A stretch of DNA of 64,000 bases, from positions 113,179-177,178 of the forward strand of contig CAACVI010000001.1 in assembly GCA_900659855.1 (NCBI GenBank), given 5' to 3'. This DNA is from Candidatus Desulfarcum epimagneticum (GTDB lineage Bacteria > Desulfobacterota > Desulfobacteria > Desulfobacterales > CR-1). Under the pieces are notes generated by a model. That model did no database searches, was not told the origin of the DNA, and worked only from the letters and a program-made list of their open reading frames with translations. Shown here in pieces: positions 1,035 to 63,161 of this stretch (the stretch's first letter is position 1; the number at the start of each line of letters is the position of its first letter). Position numbers and translations under genes: made by a program.

Positions 1035-2615
1035 ATGCATGTGACGTTTTACGGGGCGGCCCGGGAAGTCACAGGATCCATGCACCTGTTCTCCGCGGGC
1101 GGGGACCGGATTCTGTTTGACTGCGGCATTTTCCAGGGCCGCCGGAAAGAATGCGAGCATAAAAACAGGACGCTGCCCTTTGACCCGTCCATTCTCTCGG
1201 CCGTGGTCCTTTCCCACGCCCACATCGATCATTCGGGGCGGATCCCCATGCTGACCAAGGGGGGAAAATTCAGCGGGCGGGTGGTCTGCACCCGTCCCAC
1301 TGTGGCGGCCTGCGAGTATCTTCTCCCGGACTCCGCCCACATTCAGGAATCGGACGCCGCCTACCTGAATTACAAAACCCTGCGAAAATCCCTTTCCGGT
1401 ATGAAACAGGCTTCCGGAAACGGAAAATCCAAAAAAAGCGAGGAAAAAAAGATTCGGGAAATGCTCAAAAAAGGCTCCCGCAGGCCCGACATGGCGCTGG
1501 TGTCCCGGCTGATGAAAGAGCGCCGCATCGAGGTGGTCCGCCCCATCTACACCACCGACGAGGCCCTGGGCGCCCTTGAGCATTTTGACGGCTATCCCTA
1601 CCAGGTCCCCGTGAAAATAGGGGACCACATGACCTGCCGGTTTTATGACGCCGGGCATATACTCGGCTCCGCCTTCAGCGTGGTCCGGGCCTCGGAAAAC
1701 GGCAAAGCGCGGACCCTTTTATACACCGGGGACATCGGCCGTTTCGACAAGCCCATCATCAACGACCCCACCCTGGTTTTTGAAGACGAGGACCGGGACA
1801 TTGATCTGATGATCATGGAAAGCACCTACGGCGACCGCCTTCACGGCCCGGTGGCGGACTTAAAGCCCCGGCTCGGTGAAATCATCAGCCGTGTCGCGGA
1901 AAGGGGGGGGACCATTCTCATCCCCTCCTTCGCCTACGGGCGGACCCAGGAACTGCTTTATGTCCTGCATGAGCTTTACAATGAGGGCGGCGCCCCCCGA
2001 CTCCCGGTGTATGTGGACAGCCCCCTGGCCACCCACATCACCCGGGTCTTCGGCGAGCATCCCGAAAGCTATGACCGGGAAACCCATGAGACTTTTCTGG
2101 AAAAGGGCCTGAACCCGTTTTTTTTCAGCCAGGTCAAGTTTGTCGAATCCGTGGAGGAATCCATGGCGCTGATGCGTGACGAAACGCCTCACATTGTGCT
2201 GTCCGCTTCGGGAATGTGCGAGGCCGGGCGCATTCTTCACCATCTGCGTTACAAAATTCACAACCCGAAAAACGCCATCCTGATCGTGGGCTACATGGCC
2301 CAAAACACCTTTGGCCGAAAAATTCAGGAGCTGGGGGCCCAGCGCATGGAATCCGGGAAAAAGGGCCCGGCGCCCCTGGTGAAATTTTTCAACAAAACGT
2401 ATCCGCTCAAGGCCGATGTGTTTTCCATCGGGGGGTTCAGCGCCCACGCCGACAAAAACGAGATGCTGCGGTTTTTAAAAGAATCCAATCTCAACGTCAA
2501 AAAAATCGCCGTGGTGCACGGCGAAAACGATCAGTCCCTGTCCTTCGCCGAGACCCTCAGGAACGAGGGGTTCGAGGCCCAGGCCCCCATGCCGGGGGAA
2601 ACCATTGAGTTTTGA
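1035..2615 (+). CDS. MBL-fold metallo-hydrolase, beta-CASP (RNA-metabolising) family
   Basis: 526-aa ORF with the HxHxDH motif (SHAHIDHSG), an N-terminal FYGAAREVTGS and a C-terminal beta-CASP-like region (GGFSAHAD). Confidence 0.8.
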   Translation: MHVTFYGAAREVTGSMHLFSAGGDRILFDCGIFQGRRKECEHKNRTLPFDPSILSAVVLSHAHIDHSGRIPMLTKGGKFSGRVVCTRPTVAACEYLLPDSAHIQESDAAYLNYKTLRKSLSGMKQASGNGKSKKSEEKKIREMLKKGSRRPDMALVSRLMKERRIEVVRPIYTTDEALGALEHFDGYPYQVPVKIGDHMTCRFYDAGHILGSAFSVVRASENGKARTLLYTGDIGRFDKPIINDPTLVFEDEDRDIDLMIMESTYGDRLHGPVADLKPRLGEIISRVAERGGTILIPSFAYGRTQELLYVLHELYNEGGAPRLPVYVDSPLATHITRVFGEHPESYDRETHETFLEKGLNPFFFSQVKFVESVEESMALMRDETPHIVLSASGMCEAGRILHHLRYKIHNPKNAILIVGYMAQNTFGRKIQELGAQRMESGKKGPAPLVKFFNKTYPLKADVFSIGGFSAHADKNEMLRFLKESNLNVKKIAVVHGENDQSLSFAETLRNEGFEAQAPMPGETIEF

Positions 2616-2769
2616 TGGCGTCGTAAAAAAAATGCGTCGCAGCGCTTATTTTTAATCGAGGCATACTACATGTATTGCCTCAATTAAAAATAAGCGCCAC
2701 GCCTTGTGGCTTAAATTTTAGCACATGGAATTTTTAACTTAGCCATCCCAAGCTTTTTTACGAGTTTAT
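2616..2769 (+). mobile_element. MITE-like repeat copy C1 (hairpin type A plus TTAAATTTTAGCA module)
   Basis: Starts TGGCGTCGTAAAAAAAA directly after the TGA stop at 2613-2615 and ends TTTTTTACGAGTTTAT. Internal hairpin TTATTTTTAATCGAGGCATAC/GTATTGCCTCAATTAAAAATAA. Flanks GAGTTTTGA and CAATTTTGA match at 7 of 9 positions. Confidence 0.8.
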
Positions 2770-2791
2770 CAATTTTGAGGATTTTTAAAAA

Positions 2792-3235
2792 ATGAAACGA
2801 TACGAGGGCGTGTATAACTGGGACGGCTGGGGCGGCAAGCTTCGTCTGGCAAGCGGAAGCTGCATGCTCTGGATATTTGATTTCGCCGGTGAGAAAAAGA
2901 AAGACAATCTGATGTTTTTAAAACCCATTCTGGCCATCGTCCGGGACGTCCCCAAAACGTCGCCCTCTTTTGGGGAAGTGTCCATACGAAGCTGCGTCGG
3001 CCATATCGCCACATCCGTGGTCCGGGATTTCGGTCTGGACCCCCAGCGCATGCTGTGGGTGGAGCATTACCCCCGGACCCGTTACGGCTCGGGAGACGAG
3101 CGTCTCATCGAGGAGGCGTTTTTCCTCACGGACTTCGAGTGGTCCGAAGGCCGGGCGCTGAGCCCCAAAAGACGGGAGGCGAGCCCCGGCATGGCGGATC
3201 AGATCCGGGGGCTTTTAAAAAAGGGGGCTTTATGA
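2792..3235 (+). CDS. hypothetical protein
   Basis: 147-aa ORF with no recognisable motif. Its stop overlaps the next start in ATGA (3232-3235). Confidence 0.5.
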   Translation: MKRYEGVYNWDGWGGKLRLASGSCMLWIFDFAGEKKKDNLMFLKPILAIVRDVPKTSPSFGEVSIRSCVGHIATSVVRDFGLDPQRMLWVEHYPRTRYGSGDERLIEEAFFLTDFEWSEGRALSPKRREASPGMADQIRGLLKKGAL

Positions 3236-3567
3236 CTCAGAAAAATGACCTGGTCCTGATTTATTTCAAAGATGTTCCCACGGTTTTCGCCCGCGTCGAC
3301 CAGATTGACCCGGACCCAAAGCCCGGCTGGTACCATGTGACGCTGCTGTTTCTCCAGGTTCCCCTTCAGACGATGGTCTGGCTTCTTCGGGACGCGCAGA
3401 TCAACGGGGAGGAATTCACCATGGACGGGAACCGGATCCGCATGGAAAAAATACCCCCCTCCATTGAAAAGCCCCGCCGGGATGAGGAAAAGGAAGAGGC
3501 GAAAACGCCCCCGGCGTCGGGAAAGATGATCTCTTTGTCCGAAAGAAGGCCGAAAAAAAACCCATGA
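3232..3567 (+). CDS. hypothetical protein with a charged C-terminal tail
   Basis: Internal ATG of track ORF 3055..3567, chosen because it overlaps the upstream stop (ATGA). 111 aa; its stop overlaps the next ATG in ATGA (3564-3567). Confidence 0.5.
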   Translation: MTQKNDLVLIYFKDVPTVFARVDQIDPDPKPGWYHVTLLFLQVPLQTMVWLLRDAQINGEEFTMDGNRIRMEKIPPSIEKPRRDEEKEEAKTPPASGKMISLSERRPKKNP

Positions 3568-4490: not shown

Positions 4491-5488
4491 AAATCGGTTC
4501 CGTGACGCTTGAAAATCCCCTGGTTCTGGCCCCCCTGGCCGGCATCACCCATCTTGCCTTTCGCTTCCTGGCAAAGGAAGAGGGCTGCGCCCTGGTGTGC
4601 TCGGAAATGATCAGCGCCAACGGCCTGGTCCGGGGCTCGGCCAAAACCCGTAAGATGCTGGAAAGCGATCCTAAGGAAAGGCCCCTTTCCGTCCAGATTT
4701 TCGGCTCCGAGCCGCCGGTCATGGCCGAGGCGGCCCGGATGGTGGAGGAGGCGGGCGCCGATATTCTGGACATCAACTTCGGGTGCTCGGTGAGAAAAAT
4801 CCTGAAAAGCGGCTCAGGCTCGGCCCTGATGAAATCCCCCCGAAACGCCGAGACGCTGATCAAAGCCGTTCGAAAGGCCATTCAAATCCCTTTGACCATC
4901 AAAATTCGGAGCGGGTGGGACCCCTCGGGGGAGGACGCCCTGAAAATCGCCGAGATCGCCGAAGACCAGGGCGTGGACGCCATCGCGGTTCATCCCAGGA
5001 CCGCCCGGCAGGGCTTTTCCGGAACCGCCGACTGGTCCGTGATCGCCGCCGTCAAGAGGGCCGTGTCCATTCCGGTGACGGGAAACGGCGACGTGACCCG
5101 CCCCGGGGATGTCTTGAGGATGATGGCCGAAACCGGGTGCGACGCCGTGATGATCGGAAGGGCGGCCATCGGAAATCCCTGGATTTTTTCCCAGGCCGCC
5201 GCCCTTTTAAAGGGGGACGAAACAAAGGAGCCGTCTTTGTCCGAGCGGTTCCGCGTCATGAAACGGTTCCTGGAGGGCTGCGTGGCGCTTTTCGGGGAAA
5301 AAAACGCCTGCCGCATGATGCGAAGCCGTCTTCCCTGGTTTGTCAAGGGGCTTCCCCACAGCTCCCGGTTCAGAGAATCGGTCAAACAGGTGTCCAGCCA
5401 AAAAGAGGCCGGGGAGCGGATAGAGTCCTACCGGGGTTTTTTAGAAGAGCGCCGCCCCGGCCCTCAGCCGCCTTCCGACGCCGGATAG
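4487..5488 (+). CDS. dus: tRNA-dihydrouridine synthase (Dus family)
   Basis: 333-aa ORF with a typical Dus N-terminus (LENPLVLAPLAGIT), DINFGC and AVHPRTARQ motifs. Confidence 0.85.
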   Translation: MKIGSVTLENPLVLAPLAGITHLAFRFLAKEEGCALVCSEMISANGLVRGSAKTRKMLESDPKERPLSVQIFGSEPPVMAEAARMVEEAGADILDINFGCSVRKILKSGSGSALMKSPRNAETLIKAVRKAIQIPLTIKIRSGWDPSGEDALKIAEIAEDQGVDAIAVHPRTARQGFSGTADWSVIAAVKRAVSIPVTGNGDVTRPGDVLRMMAETGCDAVMIGRAAIGNPWIFSQAAALLKGDETKEPSLSERFRVMKRFLEGCVALFGEKNACRMMRSRLPWFVKGLPHSSRFRESVKQVSSQKEAGERIESYRGFLEERRPGPQPPSDAG

Positions 5489-5906
5489 GCCGCCGACACC
5501 CGGGCGTCGATCCCCCCCCGGGCGGTGAATTCCCCCGTCACTTCCATTCTTTTGGGTTTGATCCTTTCACACAAATCGTCCAGTATCCGGTTGACCACAT
5601 GCTCATAAAAAATCCCCACGTTCCGGTACTGAAGCAGGTAATACTTCAGGGATTTCAACTCGATGATTTTTTGATCCGGCGTGTACCGCACGGAAATGGT
5701 CGCGTAATCCGGAAGACCCGTCATGGGGCAGACCGATGTGAACTCGGGCTGGCGAATCACGATATCGATGTCTCTTTTCCCGCTGTAGGCGTAGTCGATG
5801 GGATCGAGAATCCCGGCCTTCACAGAGCCGGGATCTTCAATGGCATAGGGCGGTTTGGGGGCGGCTTTTTTTGCGGTCATGGCGAAACGCTCCTCACATG
5901 TCTTCA
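5450..5906. repeat. left copy of a 457-bp direct repeat (whole queF, its 5' leader and the last 13 codons of dus)
   Basis: By-eye alignment to 16436-16892 shows the same length, no indels and about a dozen substitutions. Confidence 0.9.
5464..5880 (-). CDS. queF: NADPH-dependent 7-cyano-7-deazaguanine (preQ0) reductase, unimodular type, copy 1
   Basis: 138-aa ORF with catalytic-Cys context VCPMTGLPD and the QueF motif ELKSLKYYL. Converges on dus and overlaps its 3' end by 25 nt. Confidence 0.9.
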   Translation of the reverse strand: MTAKKAAPKPPYAIEDPGSVKAGILDPIDYAYSGKRDIDIVIRQPEFTSVCPMTGLPDYATISVRYTPDQKIIELKSLKYYLLQYRNVGIFYEHVVNRILDDLCERIKPKRMEVTGEFTARGGIDARVSAAYPASEGG

Positions 5907-14580: not shown

Positions 14581-15036
14581 ATGAGCGATGAAAACAGCCA
14601 GGCGCAAGCGCCTCAAATGGACATGCAGATGCTGATCGCCGGGATTATTCCCAACGTCAAGCATTTCGACAGCCGTTTTGATCTGCTCCAGGTTCAGATA
14701 GACGGCCTGAAAAATGGTCAGAACGAATTGAAGGACAGGATCGGACGCCTGGAGACAGGGGTGGACCGGCGTTTTGAGCAGGTGGACAAACGCTTTGCGC
14801 AGGTGGACAAACGTTTTGAACAGGTGGACAAACGCTTCGAGCAGGTGGATCGGCGTTTCGAGCAGGTGGACAAACGTCTGGAGCAAATCGCGGTTTCAAT
14901 TGATCGCCTGGGGGACAAGCTGGATCGAAGAGATGAGGGCCAGCGGAATTTTACGATCAAAATGTTTTCCATCGCCGTCACCATATCCGTTCTGGGAGTG
15001 TCCGGGGCGTTCTTAAAGGTTTTGGGCATCATTTGA
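14581..15036 (+). CDS. tail-anchored coiled-coil protein with tandem (R/K)RFEQVD heptads
   Basis: ATG at 14581 has GAGGA 7 nt upstream (the track ORF starts at 14536). Contains six 21-bp/7-aa repeats and one C-terminal hydrophobic helix (MFSIAVTISVLGVSGAFLKVLGII). Confidence 0.6.
   Translation: MSDENSQAQAPQMDMQMLIAGIIPNVKHFDSRFDLLQVQIDGLKNGQNELKDRIGRLETGVDRRFEQVDKRFAQVDKRFEQVDKRFEQVDRRFEQVDKRLEQIAVSIDRLGDKLDRRDEGQRNFTIKMFSIAVTISVLGVSGAFLKVLGII
14761..14886 (+). repeat. 6 x 21-bp tandem repeat (GTGGACAAACGYTTYGAGCAG-like) encoding the heptads
   Basis: Units read directly at 14761, 14782, 14803, 14824, 14845 and 14866. Confidence 0.9.
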
Positions 15037-15097
15037 TGGCGTCGTAAAAAAAATGCGTCGCAGCGCTTATTTTTAATCAAGGCATACTACTGTCATG

Positions 15098-15721
15098 TCA
15101 AGCGTTAAAAGTCGGATAAAGCCGACGCAGTTTTATTCGCGCGTCTTCAGATGTGAATTGCCAATTTACTTTGGCGTTTTTATTGTTTCTGGCTTTCTGC
15201 CATGCATGCGCTTCCTTTTTCACGTTTTGAATATCGTCAATTCTTCTTTTTAAACACTGCCCAATGAGAACATTTAATTCTATTTCAGCCATATTTAGCC
15301 AACTGCCGTGTTTTGGAGTATACACAAAATCGAATCTGTCCCATAATTTTTTTGCCTTGTCCGGTCGAAAAGTTTCATACAAAGCGCCAGGCGTATGTGT
15401 GTTCAGATTGTCCATGACCAGCGTTATCTTTTGAGCTTTTTCATAAGCCGAGGCAATTTCTTTTATAAAAAATGCCCAGTCTTTTTTTGTCTTTCTCTCA
15501 GTGATTTTTACCATTCGGTTTCCCGCAAGAGGCTCACATGCCATGAAAATATTACACACCCCGAAACGCTTGTATTCATAATCATACCTCTCCGGTTTGC
15601 CGGGCGACGCTGAAATAGGAATCTTTGTTTCTCCAATCAATTGTTTTGGCGATTCATCCATGCATATCACTGGAAACTTTGGATCAAATGGACGTTTGTA
15701 AACATCCAAAACTTTTTCCAT
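15098..15721 (-). CDS. IS630-family transposase, DDE catalytic part (orfB)
   Basis: 207-aa ORF with IS630/Tc1-like stretches (ICMDESPKQL, ITLVMDNLNTH, HGSWLNMAEIE). Confidence 0.75.
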   Translation of the reverse strand: MEKVLDVYKRPFDPKFPVICMDESPKQLIGETKIPISASPGKPERYDYEYKRFGVCNIFMACEPLAGNRMVKITERKTKKDWAFFIKEIASAYEKAQKITLVMDNLNTHTPGALYETFRPDKAKKLWDRFDFVYTPKHGSWLNMAEIELNVLIGQCLKRRIDDIQNVKKEAHAWQKARNNKNAKVNWQFTSEDARIKLRRLYPTFNA

Positions 15722-15756
15722 ATGCGCGACAAAGCTGCAATTTTGTTTCGGCGGAA

Positions 15757-16230
15757 TTACCCATCCTTTACGCAGCCATGGTTTGATTTCGTTTTTTTTA
15801 AAATGCCACGAATAGTTTCATGTGATACACTTTCAATGTAATCAAGCTCGACAACCTTTTCTGCCAGCAAACGCAAACTCCATCTGGAAAAACCCTCTGG
15901 GGCCTCGCTGCAACTCAGCGCAACCAAGCGTGCCTCGAAATCCCCGTCGGTTTTCTTTTTATATATACGACTTCCTTTTTTCCCGTTCAGTGTAATATCA
16001 ATACCATCTTCAACAAAACGTTTTTTCACGCGGTCAATTTTTTTCATACTGACGTTCAGAACTTTTGAAATCTCTTTGTTTTTAGAGCGATTTTTCTGAA
16101 ATTCACCATCATCACATCCAAGCAAAATTAATGCGTTAAGAATTTTTTGAGACTTATGTTTTCCCTTTGATGTGAGCGCCATAAGATTGTTTCGTTCAGC
16201 TTCTGTCAACGTTACTATATATTTTTTCAT
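15757..16230 (-). CDS. IS630-family transposase, N-terminal HTH part (orfA)
   Basis: 157-aa ORF ending just after an A8 run. A -1 shift in that run reads on as KKNEIKPWLRKGWVIPPKQNCSFVAHMEKV.. into orfB. This is either programmed frameshifting or a homopolymer error. Confidence 0.75.
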   Translation of the reverse strand: MKKYIVTLTEAERNNLMALTSKGKHKSQKILNALILLGCDDGEFQKNRSKNKEISKVLNVSMKKIDRVKKRFVEDGIDITLNGKKGSRIYKKKTDGDFEARLVALSCSEAPEGFSRWSLRLLAEKVVELDYIESVSHETIRGILKKTKSNHGCVKDG

Positions 16231-16435
16231 AATACGCCCCCCTTCGGCAATTATGAAAAATATAGCATACTTTATGCGACTTTACAAGCTTGACGTGACA
16301 CTACATGTATTGCCTCAATTAAAAATAACCACTACGCCTTGTATATCGAATTTTTAACTTAGCCATCCCAAACTTTTTTACGAGTTTATCATCATTTGAC
16401 TGATCCCTGGCCCCGCCCGTTTGATCTCTGAAAGA

Positions 16436-16892: not shown

Positions 16893-17094
16893 ATGACGCG
16901 TTCAAATTCGGACTTCCTGGATTCGGCATATCAAATTTTCCCCGGCCCGGCCAGGGGTTTTTCGAAAAGTGTGGGGAATGTTCGCATGGCGGGGCGCTTT
17001 TTTGTTTTTGAAAAAAACTTGATTTAATATTTATTTTCACATAAACATTTCTTAAAATTAATTTTTAATCATCCTTTTTAAGGATTTCTATCAA

Positions 17095-25067: not shown

Positions 25068-25167
25068 ATTATGTTGTCTGTATTTTTGGGTTTGGATCAA
25101 AAAGAGGCAAAAAACCTCATTTTGTTATGGTCTTATAGGACGACTTTCGCCATAAGTCAAGCCCTGA

Positions 25168-25474
25168 CGACATCGTAAAAAATGCGTCGCGGTGGTTTTG
25201 TTCCTTCGGCATACTATATGTATGGCCTCAGGGTCAAAAAACCACCACGCCTTGTGACTTAAATTTTGATGGCGTCGTAAAAAATCCGATCTACTGCGTT
25301 ATAGCGGTTATTTTTAATTGAGGCATACTACATGTATTGCCTCAATTAAAAATAACCACTACGCCTTGTATATCGAATTTTTAACTTAGCCATCCCAATC
25401 TTTTTTACGAGTTTATTAAATTTTAGCATATGGAATTTTTACGATGTCGTCCGATCCATTTTTTATGGGTTTAT
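25168..25474 (+). mobile_element. MITE-like repeat copy C3 (hairpin type B), carrying nested copy C4
   Basis: Begins CGACATCGTAAAAAATGCGTCGCGGTGG after TGA at 25165-25167 (not a gene stop here). It resumes after C4 as TAAATTTTAGCATATGGAATTTTTACGATGTCGTCCGATCCATTTTTTATGGGTTTAT. Confidence 0.75.
25270..25416 (+). mobile_element. MITE-like repeat copy C4 (type A), nested within C3
   Basis: Full-length copy TGGCGTCGTAAAAAATCCGATCTACTGCGTT...TTTTTTACGAGTTTAT. The host-element sequence TTAAATTTT is present on both sides (25258-25266 and 25416-25424, the right copy sharing its first T with the terminal T of the element's TTTAT end). Confidence 0.8.
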
Positions 25475-25604
25475 CAAGGAGTTTTGATGGATATCGTTGA
25501 CATTTTTTTTTAAGTGTGAAAGCGTTTTAAAAAATAAAAAATCAGAATCCGAACCGTTTGGGAGTTTTTTTGAAAGGTTTTGAAAAGTGAGCTGTGAAAA
25601 AGGA

Positions 25605-41403: not shown

Positions 41404-41676
41404 ATGGCGTTTAACAGATCCGGCCGTCCGGGGCCCAAGAAAAGAAAAAGAAGAATCTATCACCGCCGCAAGGTGTGCCGCTTCTGCGCGGACTCCAGCC
41501 TGGTGATTGATTATAAGAACCCCAAAATGTTCCGTTACTTTATCACGGAGCGGGGGAAAATTATGCCCAGGCGAATTTCGGGAACCTGCGCCAAGCATCA
41601 GCGCTCTTTGAGCCATGCCATTAAGCGCGCCCGCGCCATCGCGCTGCTTCCGTATGTGGGAAACACCAATTTCTGA
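41404..41676 (+). CDS. rpsR: 30S ribosomal protein S18
   Basis: 90-aa ORF with CRFC.., [23 protein letters not shown]. Confidence 0.9.
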
Positions 41677-41814
41677 CAGCATCGCAAAAAAATGCGTCAC
41701 AGCGCTTTTTTGTTCGTTCGGCATGCCACACGTATGGCCTCTCTCTCAAAAAAGCGCGATGCCTTGTATATCGAATTTTTACGATGTCGTTTAATCGATT
41801 TTTTACGAGTTTAT
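41677..41814 (+). mobile_element. MITE-like repeat copy C5 (type B variant)
   Basis: CAGCATCGCAAAAAAATGCGTCAC... begins directly after the rpsR TGA. It ends TTTTTTACGAGTTTAT. Flanks CAATTTCTGA (41667-41676) and CAATTTTTGA (41815-41824) match at 9 of 10 positions. Confidence 0.8.
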
Positions 41815-41820
41815 CAATTT

Positions 41821-46002: not shown

Positions 46003-46079
46003 GGGTTTAAAACTCCTTTTATGTGACAGGGTTTGATAAAGTCGTAAAAAAGCTTGGGATGGCGCCATCAGGTTTTGGA

Positions 46080-52407: not shown

Positions 52408-52559
52408 TTTTGGTCTCCGTTTTGAGGTTTTAAATGCGTCGGAATCCGTTTTGATTTTTTTTTCGCCTGACATTCTTTATGGCGGTTTGAAGAAAATGAA
52501 TCAATGCCGATGATGGGAAAAAATGGAAAAAAAAGGAAAAAAAAGAAAGAAAGGATCAG

Positions 52560-52688
52560 GCGGCATCGTAAAAATTCCATATGCTAAAATTTAAGCCACA
52601 AGGCGTGGTGGTTTTTAAATAAGCGAGGCGATACCCAGTATGCCGAAGGAACAAAAAATCACCGCGACGCATTTTTTTTACGATGTCG
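52560..52688 (-). mobile_element. MITE-like repeat copy C6 (type B, inverted orientation, lacks the right tail)
   Basis: On the minus strand, CGACATCGTAAAAAAAATGCGTCGCGGTG...TTAAATTTTAGCATATGGAATTTTTACGATGCCG begins directly after the thpR TGA (tca at 52689-52691). Confidence 0.75.
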
Positions 52689-53339
52689 TCAAGAGTCGGC
52701 CAGCCGCCATATGTGAAGGGGGGTGTAAACCGGGCCGGTTTTTTTCAGATCGCTTTGAAACAGGACCACGTCGCTGCATGTGAAAGACGGGGTTTGAAAC
52801 GACCGGCCCTCTTCCAGAAGCGCCGCGGCGTCCCGGATGGGCATTTTGGCTTTGATCCGGCCCAAAGTGGCGTGGGGCTTGAACGGTTTTTGGCCCGCGC
52901 CTGAAAATGTGAGACCCTTTTCCTTAAGGCCTTTTTCCATGATCCCCTGGAAGCCGATGAGTTCACGGGCGTCGCCCTCAAAGGCGGTCCAGATGATCCG
53001 GGGGGTTCGGACGCCCGGGAAAAAACCCAGCCCCCGGGCCGACAGAGAAAACGAAGCGGCCTTTCGGACGGCCTGTGAAAGGGCCGTCCGGACGAGCGCC
53101 TGCTGATCGTCGGTGATATCCCCTAAAAATTTGAGGGTGATGTGAATGTTTCCCGGGCGGGTCCATTTGATATTCGGGTTAATATTTCGGCTGATTTTTG
53201 GGCGAGCATTCGGGCGGGCGTTTCGGCGTTTTTTTTTCAGGCGGTCCTGGAGCGCGGCCATGGCCGAAACAGCCGTCTTGGGAAGAGACAGGGCCAGGAA
53301 ACAGCGTGTCCGGCCGGGGCCTTTTTTTTCAGCGCTCAC
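52689..53339 (-). CDS. thpR: RNA 2',3'-cyclic phosphodiesterase (2H family, ThpR/LigT)
   Basis: Two HxTx motifs (HITLKF, HATLGR). A GTG start at 53339 overlapping the aor TGA (GTGA) is preferred, giving an N-terminus ...RCFLALSLP. The track ORF starts at 53381. Confidence 0.75.
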   Translation of the reverse strand: MSAEKKGPGRTRCFLALSLPKTAVSAMAALQDRLKKKRRNARPNARPKISRNINPNIKWTRPGNIHITLKFLGDITDDQQALVRTALSQAVRKAASFSLSARGLGFFPGVRTPRIIWTAFEGDARELIGFQGIMEKGLKEKGLTFSGAGQKPFKPHATLGRIKAKMPIRDAAALLEEGRSFQTPSFTCSDVVLFQSDLKKTGPVYTPLHIWRLADS

Positions 53340-55117
53340 GGCTCCCCGCCTTCCGGGGGAGGGGCGCCGTCTTTGTCCCATCCGCGCAGACGGTAATAAT
53401 CGGCCACCATAAACGCCAGCTCCCGGCGGGTGATTCCCCGCCCGTCTTTCAAACGCTCCCGGTGAAGCCGGTCGGGAAGGCGGTCGTCTTCGGGAACAAG
53501 GCCCTCCCGAATGTTGAAGCGCCGGATCAGATCGGCGAGGCGGGCGGCTTTTTTCCTCAAAGCGCTTTCATCCCATCTCACGCCGGCCGTCATCTCAAAC
53601 AGGGCGGACATTTCGCTCCATCCATAAATTTCTTTGTAAAAACGGCACAGGATCATGCAGTCCATCAGGGCCATCCGGTCTTCATAATCAATGAGAAGCG
53701 CGGCTTTTCCCTCAATCTCGTCCCGGGGAACCGCGCCGCTGATCTCCGGGGAGTGAAAAGTGGCGCGGAGGTGGCACGCCCCCCGGTGAGACACGGCAAA
53801 GGCCAGGGCGCTGCCTTTGAGAACCCTTGGGTCGTATCCCGGAAGCTCAAGGCCCTTGACATGGACGGCCATGTCCTCCATGCCCCAGCGCGAGGCGGCG
53901 AATCGAATCCCTTGCGCCAGGATATCCCCGACGCCCTGCCTTTTCGCGATCATCTCAAGCAGCCGGGCCGCCCCGTCGGGGTCCCCGTATGAAATTTTGA
54001 AATCCGTCCGGCCCTTCGCGGACGCCTCAATGGCCAGGGCGCAGAGACTTCCGGCGGAAATGGTGTCCATGCCCAGGCGGTCGCAGAGATCGTTTAAGTA
54101 AAGAATCTCCTCAATCTCTTTGATCAGGCACAGTCCGCCAAAGGCGAACAGGGTCTCATATTCGGGTCCTTCCAGCTCCAGCCCGGCGTGGCGCCCTTTC
54201 AGCGCCCGGGTCATGCGGCCGCACGCGATGAAGCACCGGGCGCAGGCCCTGGGTTTCACGTCGCAGCGCCGGTGAAGGGCCTGGGCCGTGAGGCCCTCCC
54301 ATCCTGAAAATTCCCCGCTTCCCCAGCCTTTGGACGGAACCCCGCCGATTTTCGCCAGGGGGGCCAGCATTTTGGCGGTTCCATGCCGTGAAAATTCCAC
54401 CACCACGGGGTTCTTTCTCGACTCCCGGGACACTTTCCGGGAAAAATCCTTGAGCGCCTGGAGATCATGGACCGGGCGTTTCATGCCGCCGGAAAACAAA
54501 ACGCCTTTCAGCTTTTTGGCGCCCATGACCGTTCCGGCGCCGGTTCTTCCCGCGCTTCGCCAGTAGTCGTTTCCAATGGCGGCGAATCTCACGAGATTTT
54601 CCCCGGCCGGGCCGATCACCACGGCGCCGGATTTTTGTTCCGGGCCGCCGGCGCCTGAAAAACGGGCTTTCATGGCGTCCTCGGCCTCGTAGGCGTCCAT
54701 GCCCCACATGCCCGCGGCGTCGTGGAACTTCGCCCCTTCCGGAGACACGGTCAAAGCGATGGGGGACGGGGACCGGCCGGATATGACGATGGCGTCGAAC
54801 CCCGCCGCGTCCAATGCCTCCGGGGTTTTCCCCCCGGCGTAGGATTCGGAGTAAAAACCGGTCTGGGGGGATTTGGTGAAGACCCCGTAGCGGCTTGAGC
54901 CCCACACGGGACCCCCGGACACGGGCCCGGAGGCGAAAATCAGCCGGTTGTCCGGGGAAAGGGGGTCCACCCCGGCCGGGTTTTGGGAAAAAAGAAGAAA
55001 AGAGGCCAGGGCCTTGCCCCCGGGGTATGACGCAAGGGTTTCGTCCTCTATCTTTTCAATGGAAAAATTTCTTTTCCCCAGATCAATTTTAAGAATCCGT
55101 CCGTAAAATCCGTCCAT
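53336..55117 (-). CDS. aor: aldehyde:ferredoxin oxidoreductase (tungstopterin family)
   Basis: 593-aa ORF with the AOR N-terminal domain (GRILKIDL...) and typical C-terminal domains. Confidence 0.9.
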   Translation of the reverse strand: MDGFYGRILKIDLGKRNFSIEKIEDETLASYPGGKALASFLLFSQNPAGVDPLSPDNRLIFASGPVSGGPVWGSSRYGVFTKSPQTGFYSESYAGGKTPEALDAAGFDAIVISGRSPSPIALTVSPEGAKFHDAAGMWGMDAYEAEDAMKARFSGAGGPEQKSGAVVIGPAGENLVRFAAIGNDYWRSAGRTGAGTVMGAKKLKGVLFSGGMKRPVHDLQALKDFSRKVSRESRKNPVVVEFSRHGTAKMLAPLAKIGGVPSKGWGSGEFSGWEGLTAQALHRRCDVKPRACARCFIACGRMTRALKGRHAGLELEGPEYETLFAFGGLCLIKEIEEILYLNDLCDRLGMDTISAGSLCALAIEASAKGRTDFKISYGDPDGAARLLEMIAKRQGVGDILAQGIRFAASRWGMEDMAVHVKGLELPGYDPRVLKGSALAFAVSHRGACHLRATFHSPEISGAVPRDEIEGKAALLIDYEDRMALMDCMILCRFYKEIYGWSEMSALFEMTAGVRWDESALRKKAARLADLIRRFNIREGLVPEDDRLPDRLHRERLKDGRGITRRELAFMVADYYRLRGWDKDGAPPPEGGEP

Positions 55118-57079: not shown

Positions 57080-58219
57080 ATGAAAATTAAAAAAAACAAC
57101 AGGATGTATCGATTCCTGCTCTTTCTGACCGTGGCCGTGACCGTGGGGTTCCAGACCTGGCGAACCCTTTTCAACAATTTCGCCGTGGAGGCGGCCTCCC
57201 TGGACGGCGTCCACGTGGGAATCATTCAGTCCGCCCGGGAAATCCCGGGTTTTCTCACCCTGCTGGTCATTTTTGTCATCATCGTCATCAAGGAGCGCCG
57301 CCTTTCGGCCCTGTCCGTCATGGTCATGGGCGTCGGCGTGGCCCTGACCGGTTTTTTCCCGTCTTATGCCGGGCTTCTTTTCACCACCGTGGTCATGAGC
57401 TTCGGCTTCCACTATTACGAAACCACCAACCAGTCCCTGACCCTGCAATACTTTGACACGAAAACCTCGCCCCTGGTGTTCGGCAAACAGCGCAGCTTCG
57501 CCGCCGCGTCCAATATCGCGGCGGGCGTGGCCATTTACCTCATGGCGCCGCGCATGTCCTATCTGTCCATCTACCTCATCATCGGCGTCCTGGTGGTGGC
57601 GGCGGGCCTGTGGGGCTTTTTTCAGAACCCGGACAGCCGCGACATTCCCCTCCAGCATAAAAAGATGATCTTCAAGGGCCGGTACTGGCTGTATTATTTT
57701 CTCAATTTCATGTCCGGCGCCCGGCGCCAGATATTTGTGGCCTTCGCGGTGTTTCTCCTGGTGAAAAAATTTGACTTCACCGTTCAGGAGATCGCGATCC
57801 TGTTTCTGGTGAACAACGTCGTCAATTTTTTCTTAAGCCCGCTCATCGGAAAAGCCATCATCCGCTTCGGGGAAAGAAAGGTTCTGTCCCTGGAATATTT
57901 CAGCCTGATTTTCATCTTCATCGCCTACGCCTTCGCCCAGTCGAAAATGGTGGTGGCCGGCCTTTACATCCTCGACCACGTGTTTTTCAACTTCGCCATC
58001 GCCATCCGGACCTATTTCCAGAAAATCAGCGACCCCAAAGACATCGCGCCCAGCATGGCCGTGGGCTTCACCATCAACCACATCGCCGCCGTGTTCCTGC
58101 CCGCCGCCGGCGGGCTTTTGTGGATGATCGACTACCGGATTCCCTTTTTCCTGGGCGCGGTTTTGAGCCTTGTTTCCCTGGTTGCGGTTCAGAAGATCGA
58201 CATTCACATTCAAAAATGA
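57080..58219 (+). CDS. MFS-type membrane transporter
   Basis: 379-aa ORF with 10-12 hydrophobic spans. Confidence 0.6.
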   Translation: MKIKKNNRMYRFLLFLTVAVTVGFQTWRTLFNNFAVEAASLDGVHVGIIQSAREIPGFLTLLVIFVIIVIKERRLSALSVMVMGVGVALTGFFPSYAGLLFTTVVMSFGFHYYETTNQSLTLQYFDTKTSPLVFGKQRSFAAASNIAAGVAIYLMAPRMSYLSIYLIIGVLVVAAGLWGFFQNPDSRDIPLQHKKMIFKGRYWLYYFLNFMSGARRQIFVAFAVFLLVKKFDFTVQEIAILFLVNNVVNFFLSPLIGKAIIRFGERKVLSLEYFSLIFIFIAYAFAQSKMVVAGLYILDHVFFNFAIAIRTYFQKISDPKDIAPSMAVGFTINHIAAVFLPAAGGLLWMIDYRIPFFLGAVLSLVSLVAVQKIDIHIQK

Positions 58220-58367
58220 CAGCGTCGTAAAAAATCCGATCTGCTGCGTTCCGGCTCTTATTTTGAATTGAGGCATACTACATGTATTGCCTCAATTCAA
58301 AATAAGCCCCGCGCCTTGCATATCGAATCTTTTACGACGCTGTCCCGTAATTTTTTGCGGGGTTTAT
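58220..58367 (+). mobile_element. MITE-like repeat copy C7 (type A variant with perfect inner inverted repeats)
   Basis: CAGCGTCGTAAAA...TTTTACGACGCTG forms a 13-bp perfect inner inverted repeat. The tail is TCCCGTAATTTTTTGCGGGGTTTAT. It starts directly after the TGA at 58217-58219. Flanks CAAAAATGA and GAAAAATGA match at 8 of 9 positions. Confidence 0.8.
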
Positions 58368-58376
58368 GAAAAATGA

Positions 58377-58433
58377 TGATGTCGTAAAAATCTCATCAAC
58401 CGCCTTCCGGCTCTTTTTTCTTTTATTCAGCCT
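58377..58433 (+). mobile_element. decayed partial MITE copy (C7b)
   Basis: TGATGTCGTAAAAATCTCATCAACCGCCTTCCGGCTCTTTT... aligns with the left third of C7 (..GTCGTAAAAAATCCGATCTGCTGCGTTCCGGCTCTTATTT). Confidence 0.45.
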
Positions 58434-59134: not shown

Positions 59135-59215
59135 CGACAGCATCGTAAAAATAACCGCCACGCCTTGTATATCGAATTCTTTACGACGCTGTCCCATGAT
59201 TTTTTACGAGTTTAT
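59135..59215 (+). mobile_element. MITE-like repeat copy C8 (81-bp internal-deletion derivative lacking the hairpin)
   Basis: CGACAGCATCGTAAAAATAACCGCCACGCCTTGTATATCGAATTCTTTACGACGCTGTCCCATGATTTTTTACGAGTTTAT begins directly after the upp TAA. Flanks GAAATAA and TAAATAA. Confidence 0.75.
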
Positions 59216-59221
59216 TAAATA

Positions 59222-60079
59222 ATGACGCTCTCAAAAACCCTCATCCGCTCCCTGGCGGGGATCGTTTTGTCCGCGATCCTGTTTTTTTCGTCCGGCCTCA
59301 AGGTCCCCGGACTGGACCCCGGCGCCGACGACTATTTCCGGGACGCCATGGTCAAAGCCGGGGCCGCCTACGCCACCTGCCGGGCCATCAACGCCTCGGT
59401 GTCCATTATCAAAGAATCCAAACTCCAGCTGGAGCCGGCCGGGGTGGGGATATCCGTGGCCGCCGGCCAGGCGCTGGACCCCATTGACGACATGACCGAG
59501 CGGCTCTCGGACGTGCTGGTGGTCGCCATCGTCTCACTGGGGGTCCAGAAGCTGGCCCATGAAATCGGCGTGTCCCTGGCTCCCCCGATTCTGGCTGTCC
59601 TGGCCCTTCTGCTGTCCGCTTTGATATGGATCAAAAATGAAAAGGCGGCGTTTTTTCAAAAAGCCCTGGTCCGCTTTTTATTCCTCATCCTCATCGTCCG
59701 TTTTTTCCTGCCCCTGTCGTCTCTGGCCAATGGGTTTCTTCAAACGCGGTTTTTCGACCCCCAGGCGTCCCAGGCCCGCCAGGAGCTGGCCCTGGTCTCC
59801 TCCGAGGCCGACCTCCTCAAAGACCTCTCCCTTTCCCCGTCCCCCGGGATTTTGGGCGCCATCAAAAACAGCGCCGCGCTCTTCAAACAACAAACCGCGC
59901 GTTTCAAACGCTCCCTTTCAGCCATTTCCAAAAACATGGGCCTCGTCATCGAAAATCTTTTGAAGCTGACCTTCCTGTACGTGGGATTTTTTCTGATCCA
60001 GGTCATCATCCTGCCCCTTCTGGCCTTCTGGCTCCTTTCCCGGGGGGCCCGGGTTCTGTTTGATGGGGGAATCCGGTAA
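59222..60079 (+). CDS. hypothetical membrane protein
   Basis: 285-aa ORF with several TM helices and no recognised motif. Confidence 0.5.
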   Translation: MTLSKTLIRSLAGIVLSAILFFSSGLKVPGLDPGADDYFRDAMVKAGAAYATCRAINASVSIIKESKLQLEPAGVGISVAAGQALDPIDDMTERLSDVLVVAIVSLGVQKLAHEIGVSLAPPILAVLALLLSALIWIKNEKAAFFQKALVRFLFLILIVRFFLPLSSLANGFLQTRFFDPQASQARQELALVSSEADLLKDLSLSPSPGILGAIKNSAALFKQQTARFKRSLSAISKNMGLVIENLLKLTFLYVGFFLIQVIILPLLAFWLLSRGARVLFDGGIR

Positions 60080-60130
60080 AGACAAGGCTTGTTTTGTCCC
60101 CGGGGCGGGATAAACATCGGCGGGAAAAAA

Positions 60131-60159
60131 TTGACAATCTTTATACCATCGGTTATACT
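60131..60159 (+). promoter_or_regulatory. sigma70-like promoter of the toxin-antitoxin pair
   Basis: TTGACA (60131-60136), 17-nt spacer, TATACT (60154-60159). GGAGG RBS lies before the ATG at 60187. Confidence 0.5.
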
Positions 60160-60186
60160 TTTTGTATTAAACCGGAGGTAAACAAG

Positions 60187-60435
60187 ATGCCGAATGTAAA
60201 GACCGCCATATCGGTTGAAAAATCTATTTTTGAGCGGATGGACGTCCTGGCAAAAAATTTAAACACATCAAGAAGCCGCCTGTTTGCCATGGCGGCCCGG
60301 GAATTTCTCCAGCGCCATCATCATAAAGAGCTTCTCAAATCGATCAACCATGCTTATGATGATCTGTCTGAATCCGATCCCCTTATCCAAAAGATGCGCC
60401 CGGGGCATCATGAGATGGTCAAGGACCAATGGTAA
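60187..60435 (+). CDS. ribbon-helix-helix (CopG/MazE-like) antitoxin
   Basis: 82-aa product with an RHH-type N-terminus (VKTAISVEKSIFERMDVLAKNLNTSRSRLFAMAAREFL). It lies upstream of a PemK/MazF-like gene. Confidence 0.65.
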   Translation: MPNVKTAISVEKSIFERMDVLAKNLNTSRSRLFAMAAREFLQRHHHKELLKSINHAYDDLSESDPLIQKMRPGHHEMVKDQW

Positions 60436-60582
60436 TGGCGTCGTAAAAAATCCGATCTACTGTGTTGCAGCGCTTATTTTTAATTGAGGCATACTACATG
60501 TATTGCCTCAATTAAAAATAACCACTACGCCTTGTATGTCGAATTTTTAACTTAGCCATCCCAATCTTTTTTACGAGTTTAT
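60436..60582 (+). mobile_element. MITE-like repeat copy C9 (type A), inserted between antitoxin and toxin genes
   Basis: Full-length copy flanked by a perfect 9-bp direct repeat CAATGGTAA (60427-60435 and 60583-60591). Confidence 0.85.
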
Positions 60583-60584
60583 CA

Positions 60585-60941
60585 ATGGTAATCAACCAGG
60601 GCGATATATTCTGGATAGATTTCGGCGCCCCTGACGGATCAGAGCCCGGTTATCGTCATCCCCACGTGGTCGTCCAAAACAACATTTTCAACCGCAGCCG
60701 AATCAATACGGTTGTGGTCTGCGCTTTGACCTCCAATCTCAAAAGAGCCGAGGCCCCGGGAAATGTGGCCCTGAAAAAAGGCGAGGCCAATCTGGAAAAA
60801 AGAAGCGTGGTCAATGTTTCCCAAATTTTCACTGTGAACAAAAGCGATCTGTTCCATAAAATCGGAACCCTGTCAAAGGATCGCGTGGCCCGGATTCTGC
60901 TGGGCATTCAAATTCTCATGGCGCCCGGCGATGTGGATTAA
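60585..60941 (+). CDS. PemK/MazF-family endoribonuclease toxin
   Basis: 118-aa ORF with the typical N-terminus (QGDIFWIDFG...G.E..YRHPHVVVQ) and VVCALTS. Confidence 0.8.
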   Translation: MVINQGDIFWIDFGAPDGSEPGYRHPHVVVQNNIFNRSRINTVVVCALTSNLKRAEAPGNVALKKGEANLEKRSVVNVSQIFTVNKSDLFHKIGTLSKDRVARILLGIQILMAPGDVD

Positions 60942-62038: not shown

Positions 62039-62063
62039 GATTTAGAGACAAGGCATGCCTTGA

Positions 62064-62210
62064 CGACATCGTAAAAAAATCGATCTACTGCGTTGCGGCG
62101 TTTTTTTGTTCGTTCGGCATACTATATGTATGGCCTCTCTCTCAAAAAACCACCACGCCTTGTATATCGAATTTTTACGATGCCGTCTGATCTATTTTTT
62201 ACGAGTTTAT
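62064..62210 (+). mobile_element. MITE-like repeat copy C10 (type B)
   Basis: CGACATCGTAAAAAAATCGATCTACTGCGTT...TTTTTACGATGCCGTCTGATCTATTTTTTACGAGTTTAT. Flanks CATGCCTTGA (62054-62063) and CATGCCTTGG (62211-62220) match at 9 of 10 positions. Confidence 0.8.
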
Positions 62211-62224
62211 CATGCCTTGGTGAA

Positions 62225-62290: not shown

Positions 62291-62827
62291 TCACTCCACC
62301 ATCAGAAAGGCGTACCGGTTCATTTCCTGTTCATAATCGGTCAACACCTCTATGGGGAAGCCGATTTTGCGAACGGTCGCGAAAACATCAACGCCCAGAC
62401 CTTCCGGGCAGGGTCTGGCCAGGCGCGGCTTTAAGCATTCGTCCCTCTGGCCCGGGCAATCCTCGCAAATCCCGCATTCATCCATAAACAGCAAAAACGC
62501 TTTGCGATGCCCGGACAGAAACACCGCTTTTTCCAGCTTGAGCAAATCGAGATTGGTTTCCCGGCCCCATTTTTTTCTGTCATCCGGACGCGCCACTTTT
62601 TTCGCGATATGAATGATTGCGATCCGCCTGTATTCCTTAAAAAATTCCTGACATTCCTGAACGGACGGAACAGACGGCGGGCACGCGCCGCTCTTTCCGT
62701 AAGTGGGGCATCCGAACATGCATTTGAATCTGGGCCACTGGCGGACCTCCACCTCTTCTCCGGATATCCATTTGAAGTCCGGATATCCATTTTCGGAAAT
62801 GATGGTCTCAATTTTTTCAGCGTTCAT
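62291..62827 (-). CDS. DUF2284-like predicted metal-binding protein
   Basis: 178-aa ORF with the Cys-rich motif CMFGCPTYGKSGACPP and later CxxCxxC-like Cys residues. Confidence 0.65.
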   Translation of the reverse strand: MNAEKIETIISENGYPDFKWISGEEVEVRQWPRFKCMFGCPTYGKSGACPPSVPSVQECQEFFKEYRRIAIIHIAKKVARPDDRKKWGRETNLDLLKLEKAVFLSGHRKAFLLFMDECGICEDCPGQRDECLKPRLARPCPEGLGVDVFATVRKIGFPIEVLTDYEQEMNRYAFLMVE

Positions 62828-62838
62828 AAGTTTTTTCC

Positions 62839-63045
62839 TTAACTGGTTGATTTTAGATTAAATTTTTTCCCGACGGCGGTCTGCGCCGCATCGCGCGAAA
62901 GCCATATAATGTGGATCTCATACTCGCTTTGGAGTTTTTTGATCGCCAAGCTTGTCAAAATAGCGCCAGGCGCCATTGAAATCGGAAAATATTTCCAGAT
63001 CGTGACCATCAGGCATATCAGGCTCCATTGCCGGGGGACGCCCAT
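62839..63045 (-). CDS. small hypothetical protein
   Basis: 68-aa ORF directly upstream of, and on the same strand as, the DUF2284 gene. No motif recognised. Confidence 0.3.
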   Translation of the reverse strand: MGVPRQWSLICLMVTIWKYFPISMAPGAILTSLAIKKLQSEYEIHIIWLSRDAAQTAVGKKFNLKSTS

Positions 63046-63107
63046 TTATTGACAATCCTTGCCGGCGTTGGTATTGTCTTTTTTATCATTTTAAACAGAT
63101 GGGGGCG

Positions 63108-63161
63108 CCGGCATCGCAAAAAGATGCCCACGCCCTGTATATCGGATTTTTACGATTTTAT
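63108..63161 (+). mobile_element. short decayed MITE copy C11
   Basis: CCGGCATCGCAAAAAGATGCCCACGCCCTGTATATCGGATTTTTACGATTTTAT retains the left end, the ACGCCYTGTATATCG core and the right end. Confidence 0.55.

Follow-up and report, generated by a model that had tools for sequence, protein, structure and literature searches.

A miniature inverted-repeat element family at gene ends in Candidatus Desulfarcum epimagneticum, with ends resembling those of IS256-family insertion sequences

[quoted passage not shown] A second is Chunjie, a MITE found in Geobacter uraniireducens, which is present in many full and partial copies and can lie inside an operon without destroying the operon structure (PMC10969869). 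Here we describe a MITE family from a 64,000-nt stretch (hereafter the window) of the genome of Candidatus Desulfarcum epimagneticum (contig CAACVI010000001.1, positions 113,179 to 177,178), a magnetotactic ectosymbiont on an anaerobic euglenid protist (PMC13416559), in which many copies begin on the stop codon of the upstream gene.

Unlike this family, Correia elements have a TA duplication, 26-bp inverted ends starting TATAG, an integration host factor (IHF) site and a different host phylum; the two share no sequence similarity, and no upstream-stop-codon rule is described for Correia elements (PMC2229807, PMC10969869). Chunjie, compared by description only, shares a deltaproteobacterial-type host with the present family; it measures 178-235 bp, its remaining full-length copies are called intergenic, and no stop-junction or orientation rule is reported for it (PMC10969869). 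Repetitive extragenic palindromes (REP/BIME) and REPINs are likewise intergenic palindromes clustered just past open reading frames (ORFs), and REP/BIME can act on upstream mRNA, but REPs are 20-40 nt long, show no target duplication and are linked with RAYT (Y1) transposases, whereas the present family has duplications and DDE-type ends. Nothing resembling the element is described in the literature on MITEs, Desulfobacteraceae and the host organism, and the family is previously undescribed: new, and mildly unusual. On balance, we think it likely that these copies form a non-autonomous MITE family of about 140-157 bp in Desulfobacterales, probably mobilised by an IS256-family (Mutator-like) DDE transposase, and that their distribution reflects a T^GA-biased target (^ marks the junction between target and element) together with purifying selection.

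The element family, its anatomy and its boundaries

Thirteen MITE insertion events were counted in the window (Table 1), about one copy per 5 kb in a gene-dense stretch (G+C 46-60%) of which about 4.6 kb of the 64 kb (~7%) is intergenic after subtraction of the MITE copies. Copy counts refer to this one window, relatives were taken from pattern scans of genome-contig, metagenome, viral and plasmid collections, and 15 informative copies (window copies and L-numbered relatives) were used for duplication and target statistics. The original prediction of one element shared by at least 12 loci was borne out at every position it gave, by repeat finding and by nhmmer; the family stood but the count of 12 became 13 events, a 35-bp mini copy (c13) having been overlooked. 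Repeat finding and two nhmmer profiles agreed on the loci and yielded no other convincing match in the window. Copies are 35-179 bp in size, the uninterrupted full-length ones 141-157 bp, and up to 94% identical by repeat finding, and the 23-nt core ACGCCTTGTATATCGAATTTTTA occurs seven times at ≤3 mismatches against 0 expected.

Table 1. MITE copies in the window and the insertion sequence that interrupts one of them (positions are those of the window; E values from nhmmer)
Feature	Position (strand)	Form and setting	E value	Left junction	Duplication or flanks
c1	2614..2770 (+)	Full length, A-type ends, 15-nt insert variant; next gene 22 nt downstream	1e-39	T^GA, stop of beta-CASP gene 1035-2615	GAGTTTT/CAATTTT, then GA
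c2, left part	15035..15089 (+)	Reaches the hairpin loop		T^GA, stop of coiled-coil gene 14536-15036	CATCATTT, perfect, 8 bp; GA next on both sides
IS630-family IS	15090..16301 (-)	1212 bp; splits c2 at TA in the hairpin loop; Pfam DDE_3 and HTH_32/HTH_29			TA, at 15088-89 and 16302-03
c2, right part	16302..16390 (+)		1e-24		Followed by CATCATTTGA
c3, left part	25166..25267 (+)	B type; host of nested c4; divergent intergenic region		Own TGA, not a gene stop	Left flank CAAGCCCT, 5/8 match
c4	25268..25416 (+)	Nested in c3	4e-46		TAAATTTT, 8 bp
c3, right part	25417..25475 (+)				Followed by CAAGGAGT
c5	41675..41815 (+)	Full length, B type; between rpsR and DUF2232 gene	2e-37	T^GA, rpsR stop	CAATTTCT/CAATTTTT, then GA
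c13	46035..46069 (-)	35-bp mini derivative, GATGGC and GCCATC joined, plus tail		10 nt past stop of beta-CASP gene 46080-47453 (-), sense to it	CAAAACCT/CAAACCCT (7/8)
c6	52512..52690 (-)	B type; right end degenerate, T-rich	4e-26	T^GA, stop of thpR/LigT 52689-53381 (-)	None recognisable
c7	58218..58367 (+)	Between MFS stop codon and older c8	2e-43	T^GA, stop of MFS gene 57080-58219	CAAAAAT/GAAAAAT
c8	58375..58420 (+)	Left-end remnant (GATGATGTCGTAAAAATC...); tandem with c7		Same MFS stop
c9	59136..59215 (+)	Hairpin deleted between two TAAAAAT repeats		1 nt past upp stop TAA	GAAATAAC/TAAATAAT
c10	60434..60583 (+)	Full length, A type, tip AA not GA; gap between putative antitoxin gene and mazF	2e-46	T^AA, stop of putative antitoxin gene	CAATGGT, then AA
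c11	62062..62211 (+)	Full length, B type	8e-43	23 nt past Fic gene stop	CATGCCTT, perfect, 8 bp
c12	~63099..63162 (+)	Decayed remnant; tail deleted between two TTTTTACGA repeats		Left boundary uncertain

Several copies record movement. The 25.2-kb locus consists of two events, c4 nested within c3; c7 is a tandem re-insertion next to c8, whose GA completed the same MFS stop before c7 arrived, the site having been hit twice; and c9, c12 and c13 are deletion derivatives, formed between short repeats (c9, c12) or at the palindrome base (c13). The copy that had been read as flanked by CATCATTTGA does have a genuine duplication, but it is one element split by an IS630-family insertion sequence (IS). 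This IS duplicated TA and has inverted ends (CTGTCATGTCAAGC/GTGTCACGTCAAGC) unlike those of the MITE, which rules it out as a MITE partner; its coding region is divided into an HTH and a DDE_3 ORF, probably through a frameshift, and another contig of the same genome bears a paralogue that is 93% identical to its transposase. The prediction that no autonomous partner is visible in the window holds, a Pfam search of essentially all ORFs having returned only this IS630-type transposase, with unrelated ends, and no Transposase_mut (PF00872) gene in the window. Being short and non-coding, with terminal inverted repeats, target duplications and dispersed copies that show evidence of movement, the family is a MITE. 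Its open frames are incidental only: a six-frame peptide query gave no match among 5.8 billion protein sequences, and a mini-ORF, ATGGCGTCGTAA, seen in the A type only, was considered and dropped.

All the parts named in the original prediction are present: a left end YRRCRTCGTAAAAAA, a 20-25-bp hairpin around GGCATAC..GTATKGCC, the core and a right end TTTTTTACGAGTTTAT. An alignment (A1) of nine copies from the window and four from elsewhere, in other organisms, gave conserved blocks at the left (TCGTAAAAA), in the loop or apex (ATACTACATGTAT), at ACGCCTTG and GGAATTTTTA, and at the right (TTTTTTACGAG). The left tip, 5'-GA(T/C)nnn(G/A)TCGTAAAAAA, comes in an A type (GATGGCGTCG) and a B type (GACGACATCG or GACAGCGTCG). 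Two inverted copies of this motif lie in the right end: an internal one, which mirrors the left tip (A type ...CTTAGCCATC, B type ...ACGATGTCGTC) and changes together with it in every copy, and a terminal one (...TTTTTTACGAGTTTAT(C)), contained in a 24-nt constant tail that lies beyond the internal copy and closes the element. In this genome the reverse complement of the right end is GATAAACTCGTAAAAAA; elsewhere it is GATGAGCTCG.., GATGATCTCG.. or GATGAACTCG... Terminal inverted repeats are present (left GATGGCGTCGTAAAAAA against reverse-complemented right GATAAACTCGTAAAAAA), imperfect and about 17 bp long, and the left tip co-varies with the internal, not the terminal, right repeat. Between the ends lies a long imperfect palindrome with a variable stem, 9 of whose 38 predicted pairs change on both sides, and a predicted fold of -44 kcal/mol (z ~ -7) on either strand. 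Tip type, a TCCGATCTAC linker, hairpin type and the 15-nt insert assort as a mosaic. Rfam returned no match over the window, and at E<1 only far-sub-threshold miRNA-precursor models, a generic response to long hairpins.

Individual copies have further peculiarities. The right end of c6 (52512-52545, minus strand) is replaced by a long T/C-rich run (TTTCTTTCTTTTTTTTCCTTTTTTTTCC...), which may be an expansion by T-tract slippage. The internal repeat of c11 (62172-62190) reads CGATGCCGTCTGATC and includes the Neisseria DNA-uptake sequence ATGCCGTCTGA, a coincidence, given that the other copies differ at those positions. Through the B-type copies at 41675-41815, 62062-62211 and 58218-58367, the frame of the junction TGA stays open for 49-55 codons beginning (Q/R)(H/R)RKK..., and read-through of the stop would append a long basic tail to the upstream protein.

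The DnaB and the IS630-type transposase encoded in the window show 100% identity to NCBI proteins of Candidatus Desulfarcum epimagneticum. An independent Logan assembly of run ERR2856278 matches window positions 39828-46062 base for base (contig L033), copy c5 included. Its short contigs end within MITE copies, L033 stopping in the 46035-46069 copy and L034 beginning in the 62062-62211 copy (~window 62183) and running about 85 nt beyond the window end; these breaks are consistent with a very high genomic copy number.

The flanking repeats quoted in the original prediction are all present (CATCATTTGA x2, CAATGGTAA x2, CAATTTCTGA/CAATTTTTGA, CATGCCTTGA/CATGCCTTGG, CAAAAATGA/GAAAAATGA, GAGTTTTGA/CAATTTTGA and GAAATAA/TAAATAA) and are genuine; their length of 9-10 bp was an overestimate, the core being 7-8 bp and the additional GA being the element's tip. 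True pairs of left and right flanks share 95 matching bases; re-paired flanks shared 57.4 on average and 83 at most, so that none of 100,000 trials reached the observed value. Matches are complete in c2, c4 and c11 (8/8) and in c10, L004 and L017 (7/7), reach 7/8 in c5, c13 and L011a, fall to 5-6 of 7-8 in c7, c9, c1 and c3, and are at background level in L011b and L013. The prediction had allowed that the TGA might belong to the element and the duplications be due to chance: half of this proved right, in that GA of the TGA is element-borne, yet the duplications are not chance. The high re-pairing background indicates a target preference, and the duplications are biased to C at position 1, A at position 2 and T at the last position.

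The boundary is set most directly by c4, whose empty site is kept in the paralogues c1 and c6 as CTTAAATTTTAGCA (GGCTTAAATTTTAGCAYATGG). Its left junction reads ...TAAATTTT-GA-TGGCG (TTTT-GA) and its right junction TTTAT-TAAATTTT-AG (TTTT-AG); comparison with the empty site shows that TAAATTTT was duplicated and that GA was brought by the element. At four further junctions the left-hand GA faces a different continuation of the right flank (GG in c11, GT in c13, AA in L004, TG in L011a), and in both tip types the internal repeat ends in TC, the mirror of GA. These observations, with the GA or GG tips of IS256-family elements, identify GA as the element's own tip, the stop codon read from the sequence as a chimera of a target T and an element GA. 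In 7 of 10 window copies the C that follows ...TTTAT goes with the left flank, and c4, where the base is not C, is among them; this speaks for a duplication of 8 bp. The right-hand duplications of c3 (CAAGGAGT) and of a phage relative (TAAGGGAC) resemble ribosome-binding sites.

Relatives of the element were detected in four Desulfobacterales metagenome-assembled genomes (MAGs; L013, L017, L027 and L028) through a looser pattern scan (20 loci), a strict genome-contig scan for GAATTTTTA-N17-TTTTTTACGAGTTTAT having given no match. In a metagenome scan (12 loci), two contigs of one metagenome carried copies (L004 and L011), and a third was a right-end fragment. The sole real contig in five viral scans, whose other matches were due to chance, is an IMG/VR contig (L062, IMGVR_UViG_3300037247_002436, GC 0.58), which holds two copies at 1740-2475 within a tail module of myovirus type, where PHROGs recognises tail sheath, tail tube, tape measure and baseplate. 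Both are in sense orientation and lie exactly on stop codons, one that of the sheath gene and the other that of the tube gene; the alignment of the sheath protein extends to the profile end, which places its stop at the natural position. The MITE may therefore be spread by a phage; no DNA similar to it was found in the plasmid collection. Two 227-aa ORFs beside element ends (L028 and L009) were rejected as transposases, their translations resembling, by inspection, a Crp/Fnr-type regulator and a membrane protein.

Stop-codon junctions, target bias and orientation

An in-frame stop before the left end was confirmed at all seven loci named in the original prediction, with 531, 168, 91, 292, 440, 248 and 123 open codons upstream, except that at upp, where the open frame stood, the element does not abut the stop exactly. 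Of the gene names proposed, Pfam backs beta-CASP, MFS, LigT/ThpR, S18 and PemK, whereas the antitoxin gene gave no Pfam hit and is placed by its position before mazF. Overall, 7 of the 13 events in the window (c1, c2, c5, c6, c7, c8 and c10) have as their T^GA or T^AA junction the in-frame stop of a real gene; c9, c13 and c11 begin 1, 10 and 23 nt after a gene stop, and the rest are divergent or nested. The base before the element is T in 14 of 15 copies, and the left junction is nearly always TGA, two copies with AA giving TAA. Past the right-hand duplication, a pre-existing stop remains visible in five copies (GA in c1, c2, c5 and c9, AA in c10), which means that the element cut between the T and the RA of an existing stop codon. 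Across the 15 informative copies the right-hand duplication is followed by GA in seven and by AA in two, against a GA background of 0.062 (P=1.4e-5). The asymmetric target proposed originally, roughly CA-N5-T(G/A)A, is accordingly upheld as a bias in what follows the duplication, but not in the GA of the left side, which is the element's.

How far this exceeds expectation depends on the null. The window has 58 TGA/TAA stop codons and 328 intergenic TGA/TAA triplets on both strands. If any TRA outside coding sequence is a potential site, 15% of insertions are expected on stops (P=1.3e-3 for 7/13); with TTRA the expectation is 11.4% (P=2e-4), and with CA-N4-5-TRA it is 32.5% (P=0.09). The enrichment at stop codons is thus moderate.

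One explanation would give stop codons no special part at all: an AT-preferring MITE in a compact GC-rich genome would survive at gene junctions, and geometry and a small sample would do the rest. The scarcity of intergenic sequence in the window agrees with this, as do the P value under the motif-specific null and the MAG copies, which are near stops and not on them. In six cases (c1, c5, c9, c10, L011a and L013) the original gap was ≤16 nt or the genes overlapped, and in a gap that short or negative any harmless insertion must touch the stop codon, so geometry accounts for part of the stop effect. It fails, however, for the exact junctions in original gaps of 50-85 nt (c2, c6 and c7/c8), for the double hit on the MFS stop and for the two exact copies in the unrelated phage contig, and GA after the right duplication is strongly enriched; we consider geometry an improbable account of the whole. 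Target choice and selection are inseparable in this sample.

Where genes overlap, the duplication has kept both reading frames. That of c9 covers the stop/start overlap TAATG, with the start of gene 59222-60079 in the right copy, and that of c10 together with AA holds the upstream stop TAA and the mazF ATG (60585), both ORFs being intact although the antitoxin gene and mazF overlapped before insertion. The L011a duplication, TAGAAGG, comprises the stop of a putative ORF for a protein like heterodisulfide reductase HdrA (identified by eye) and the ribosome-binding site of the next gene.

Orientation is more uniform than position. Wherever the upstream gene is co-oriented, the copy is in sense orientation, which holds for all 15 such copies (9 from the window, 4 from MAGs or metagenomes and 2 on the phage contig), and the originally noted facing of the left end towards the upstream gene holds even for the inverted c6, on the minus strand and sense to thpR/LigT. 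The minus-strand copies c6 and c13 sit in a minus-strand gene block at 44.9-56.7 kb, so that orientation tracks transcription rather than one DNA strand, which counts against a replication-strand mechanism. Nor can stop regeneration set the orientation, because the reverse-complemented right end also begins with GA. In antisense a run of U6-U8 would follow 0-6 nt past the stem (U8 within 6 nt in c1, the stem closing onto the U run in c10), whereas in sense no U tract occurs within 10 nt of the stem in copies without the linker. As an antisense hairpin with its U run resembles an intrinsic terminator, the sense bias most likely represents selection against polarity, as far as can be judged from the sequence.

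The same bias could instead mean that the MITE transposes but is kept for a function, its sense intercistronic RNA hairpin tuning mRNA stability or processing, or translation termination and coupling, as in REP/BIME, ERIC and Correia elements; on this view the placement at stop codons would have been selected for that function and not just tolerated. Sense orientation in 15 of 15 copies whichever the DNA strand, 13 of these 15 lying ≤10 nt from the upstream stop, would suit such a role, as would nine compensatory stem pairs, a loop conserved across genera, a very stable fold (z ~ -7) and the presence of copies in a ribosomal-protein operon, a toxin-antitoxin pair and a phage tail operon. Liang and Deutscher are said to have reported in 2015 that, in E. 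coli, a REP hairpin no more than ~15 nt away from a stop codon reduces translation of the upstream gene. However, G-U pairs and C-A mismatches are balanced across strands (8 versus 7), giving no signal of selection on one of the two RNA strands; co-variation of the arms is also expected when both bind one transposase; some copies occupy divergent promoter regions or lie within one another (c3, c4 and c12); and many copies of the family are decayed. Retention for function is, in our estimation, possible but rather unlikely. We hold it similarly doubtful, if slightly more so, that the MITE or its transposase recognises ORF ends (T^GA/T^AA, oriented), or that the MITE was recruited as a sense, stop-adjacent intercistronic module acting on translation termination, coupling or mRNA processing; in either case a mobile 'gene-end' cassette, and not just a tolerated parasite, would have spread in both a symbiont genome and a phage late operon.

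A dominant long hairpin with a conserved loop, asymmetric ends, a strong orientation bias and the lack of a DDE partner among the sequences found might also suggest a Y1 (HUH) transposase of IS200/IS605 or RAYT type, which moves a single-stranded palindrome and inserts it 3' of a fixed target ending in T, as for PATEs and REPINs; T is constant in 15 of 17 left-flank junctions (c9 counted as the 17th). Against this, duplications of 7-8 bp are not made by this mechanism, the ends match IS256-family ISs, and orientation follows local genes on both strands (c6 and c13 being minus in a minus block), so we give this model very little weight. An IS200/IS605-type PATE or a RAYT-type REPIN was accordingly rejected, the element having duplications, only T as a constant target base and an orientation that follows genes on both strands. 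Integron attC sites were ruled out: the ends are GAYnnn.../...GTTTAT(C) with no GTTRRRY, the duplications differ from site to site, the neighbours are housekeeping genes (rpsR, upp) and there is no integrase in the window. A selenocysteine insertion sequence (SECIS) reading was considered and dropped.

Likeness to IS256-family insertion sequences

IS256 elements give 8-9-bp duplications. For comparison, a tblastn search of plasmids with the IS256 transposase was made and ten members were fetched, of which six, in addition to IS256, had readable ends, located through exact 8-bp flanking repeats. Those of the six are GATCGTGTCCC / GATCATGTCCC in a Rhizobium tropici IS (duplication TGAATAAT), GATAGTGTCCC in a Sulfitobacter IS (GAAGCGCG), GGGACTGTCAGG in both ISRm3 (GTTTGCAA) and ISSpwi2 (TTACCGCG), GACACTGTCTCAAAAAG in a Fulvitalea IS (GACTGGGG) and GAGTCTGTACA in a Klebsiella IS (GCGCGCCC). 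The end of IS256 itself is GATAAAGTCCGTATAATTGTG, with tip GATAAAGTCCGTATAA (primers in PMC4207318; also read in L043); its duplication was not recovered. Family members share a G(A/G) tip and have GTC at positions 7-9, a pattern that fits the MITE's GATGGCGTCGTAAAAAA and GACAGCGTCGTAAAAAA, the latter matching the Fulvitalea end at 13 of 17 positions. The fuller pattern G(A/G)nnnnGTC plus an A/T-rich stretch is matched by GATGGCGTC and GACAGCGTC, while GACGACATC and the right end GATAAACTC keep only the TC.

The MITE resembles the IS256 family in its duplication, of 8 bp if the element ends ...TTTAT, and in inverted ends with G(A/G), (G)TC at positions 7-9 and then an A-rich stretch, whereas it differs in having no transposase gene, a length of ~150 bp, an end motif that occurs three times (once on the left and twice on the right) and a conserved central hairpin. 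Its ends and duplication probably place it with the IS256 family, which is good circumstantial evidence and not proof. To our knowledge, neither a T^GA target bias nor a sense orientation is known for IS256 elements.

On this reading, a DDE transposase encoded elsewhere would most likely move the MITE. Insertion duplicates 7-8 bp, at a target biased to (C)A-N5-T^GA/AA, a bias in part visible in the junctions and in part supposed. With GA at its start, the MITE re-creates TGA after landing behind any T; where a stop codon begins with that T, the upstream protein would be unchanged and the old stop pushed to the right-hand side. Through the 7-8-bp duplication the following gene would keep its ribosome-binding site, or even a start codon that overlaps. 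With genes so dense, other insertions would then be removed by purifying selection, leaving survivors on stop codons and in tiny intercistronic gaps.

Several observations weigh against this account. The preference for RA away from stop junctions is weak (3/8, P=0.08), and the stop excess is not significant against the CA-N4-5-TRA null, which is itself circular, the occupied stops having shaped the motif. None of the six MAG or metagenome copies lies exactly on a stop: in four the distance past the preceding stop is 2, 5, 10 and 77 nt, and for the other two no upstream stop could be assigned. The duplication measures 8 bp only if the element ends ...TTTAT, and 7 bp if the C that follows is its tip. 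Within this genome the tips of the terminal repeats match poorly (GATGGCG versus GATAAAC). The apex and the motifs ACGCCTTG, GGAATTTTTA and CTTAGCCATC are strongly conserved over hosts of 37-58% GC, beyond what transposase binding needs. A simple terminator scan flagged no MITE copy as a rho-independent terminator, which bears on the orientation argument. No IS or transposase with GAnnnnNTCGTAAAAA-type ends was found in the window or the fetched loci, and the IS256 assignment is one of end similarity and duplication length. The nearest DnaB homologue in the database is 77% identical, and no orthologous empty site was available for comparison.

Neighbouring features and significance

Some of the genes beside MITE copies are of interest in themselves. 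Both beta-CASP/RMMBL (RNase J-like) paralogues, 1035-2615 (+) and 46080-47453 (-), are followed by a MITE copy (c1 and c13). The coiled-coil gene before c2 has at least six tandem 21-bp units (14739-14906) encoding a 7-residue repeat, approximately QVDKRFE. At the other side of c2, 46 nt past its right end, begins the second copy of a 300-bp duplication (5450-5749 and 16436-16735, 97% identity) that takes in the 3' portions of two minus-strand genes of the QueF family (5464-5880 and 16450-17040). At c10, the MITE parts the putative antitoxin gene from mazF/PemK (60094-60941); the AAGGA ribosome-binding site of mazF is now 150 nt upstream and only ACGAG of the MITE tail precedes its ATG, which may reduce translation of the toxin.

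Elsewhere in the window, the lowest-GC part (0.46-0.49) encodes a 2069-aa RHS/Tc-toxin-like protein (7045-13254, minus strand) with SpvB, TcdB_toxin_midN, FG-GAP and RHS repeats, which appears to be a toxin locus that the symbiont acquired by horizontal transfer. Repeats 303 bp apart with 83-87% identity at 17217-17747, in a 716-aa protein with weak Ig-like/fn3 similarity, are tandem domain duplications.

For work on this organism, the MITE breaks short-read assemblies, and gene callers can put start codons inside it. It may also alter the coupling of neighbouring genes, such as an antitoxin and its toxin. If the pattern described here holds genome-wide, this transposon can invade packed operons, even overlapping genes, with no protein changed, its tip rebuilding the stop codon and its target duplication the start region of the next gene. 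Such a mode of insertion would help to account for a density near one copy every 5 kb in a host-associated bacterium, and for the presence of the element in a phage tail operon.

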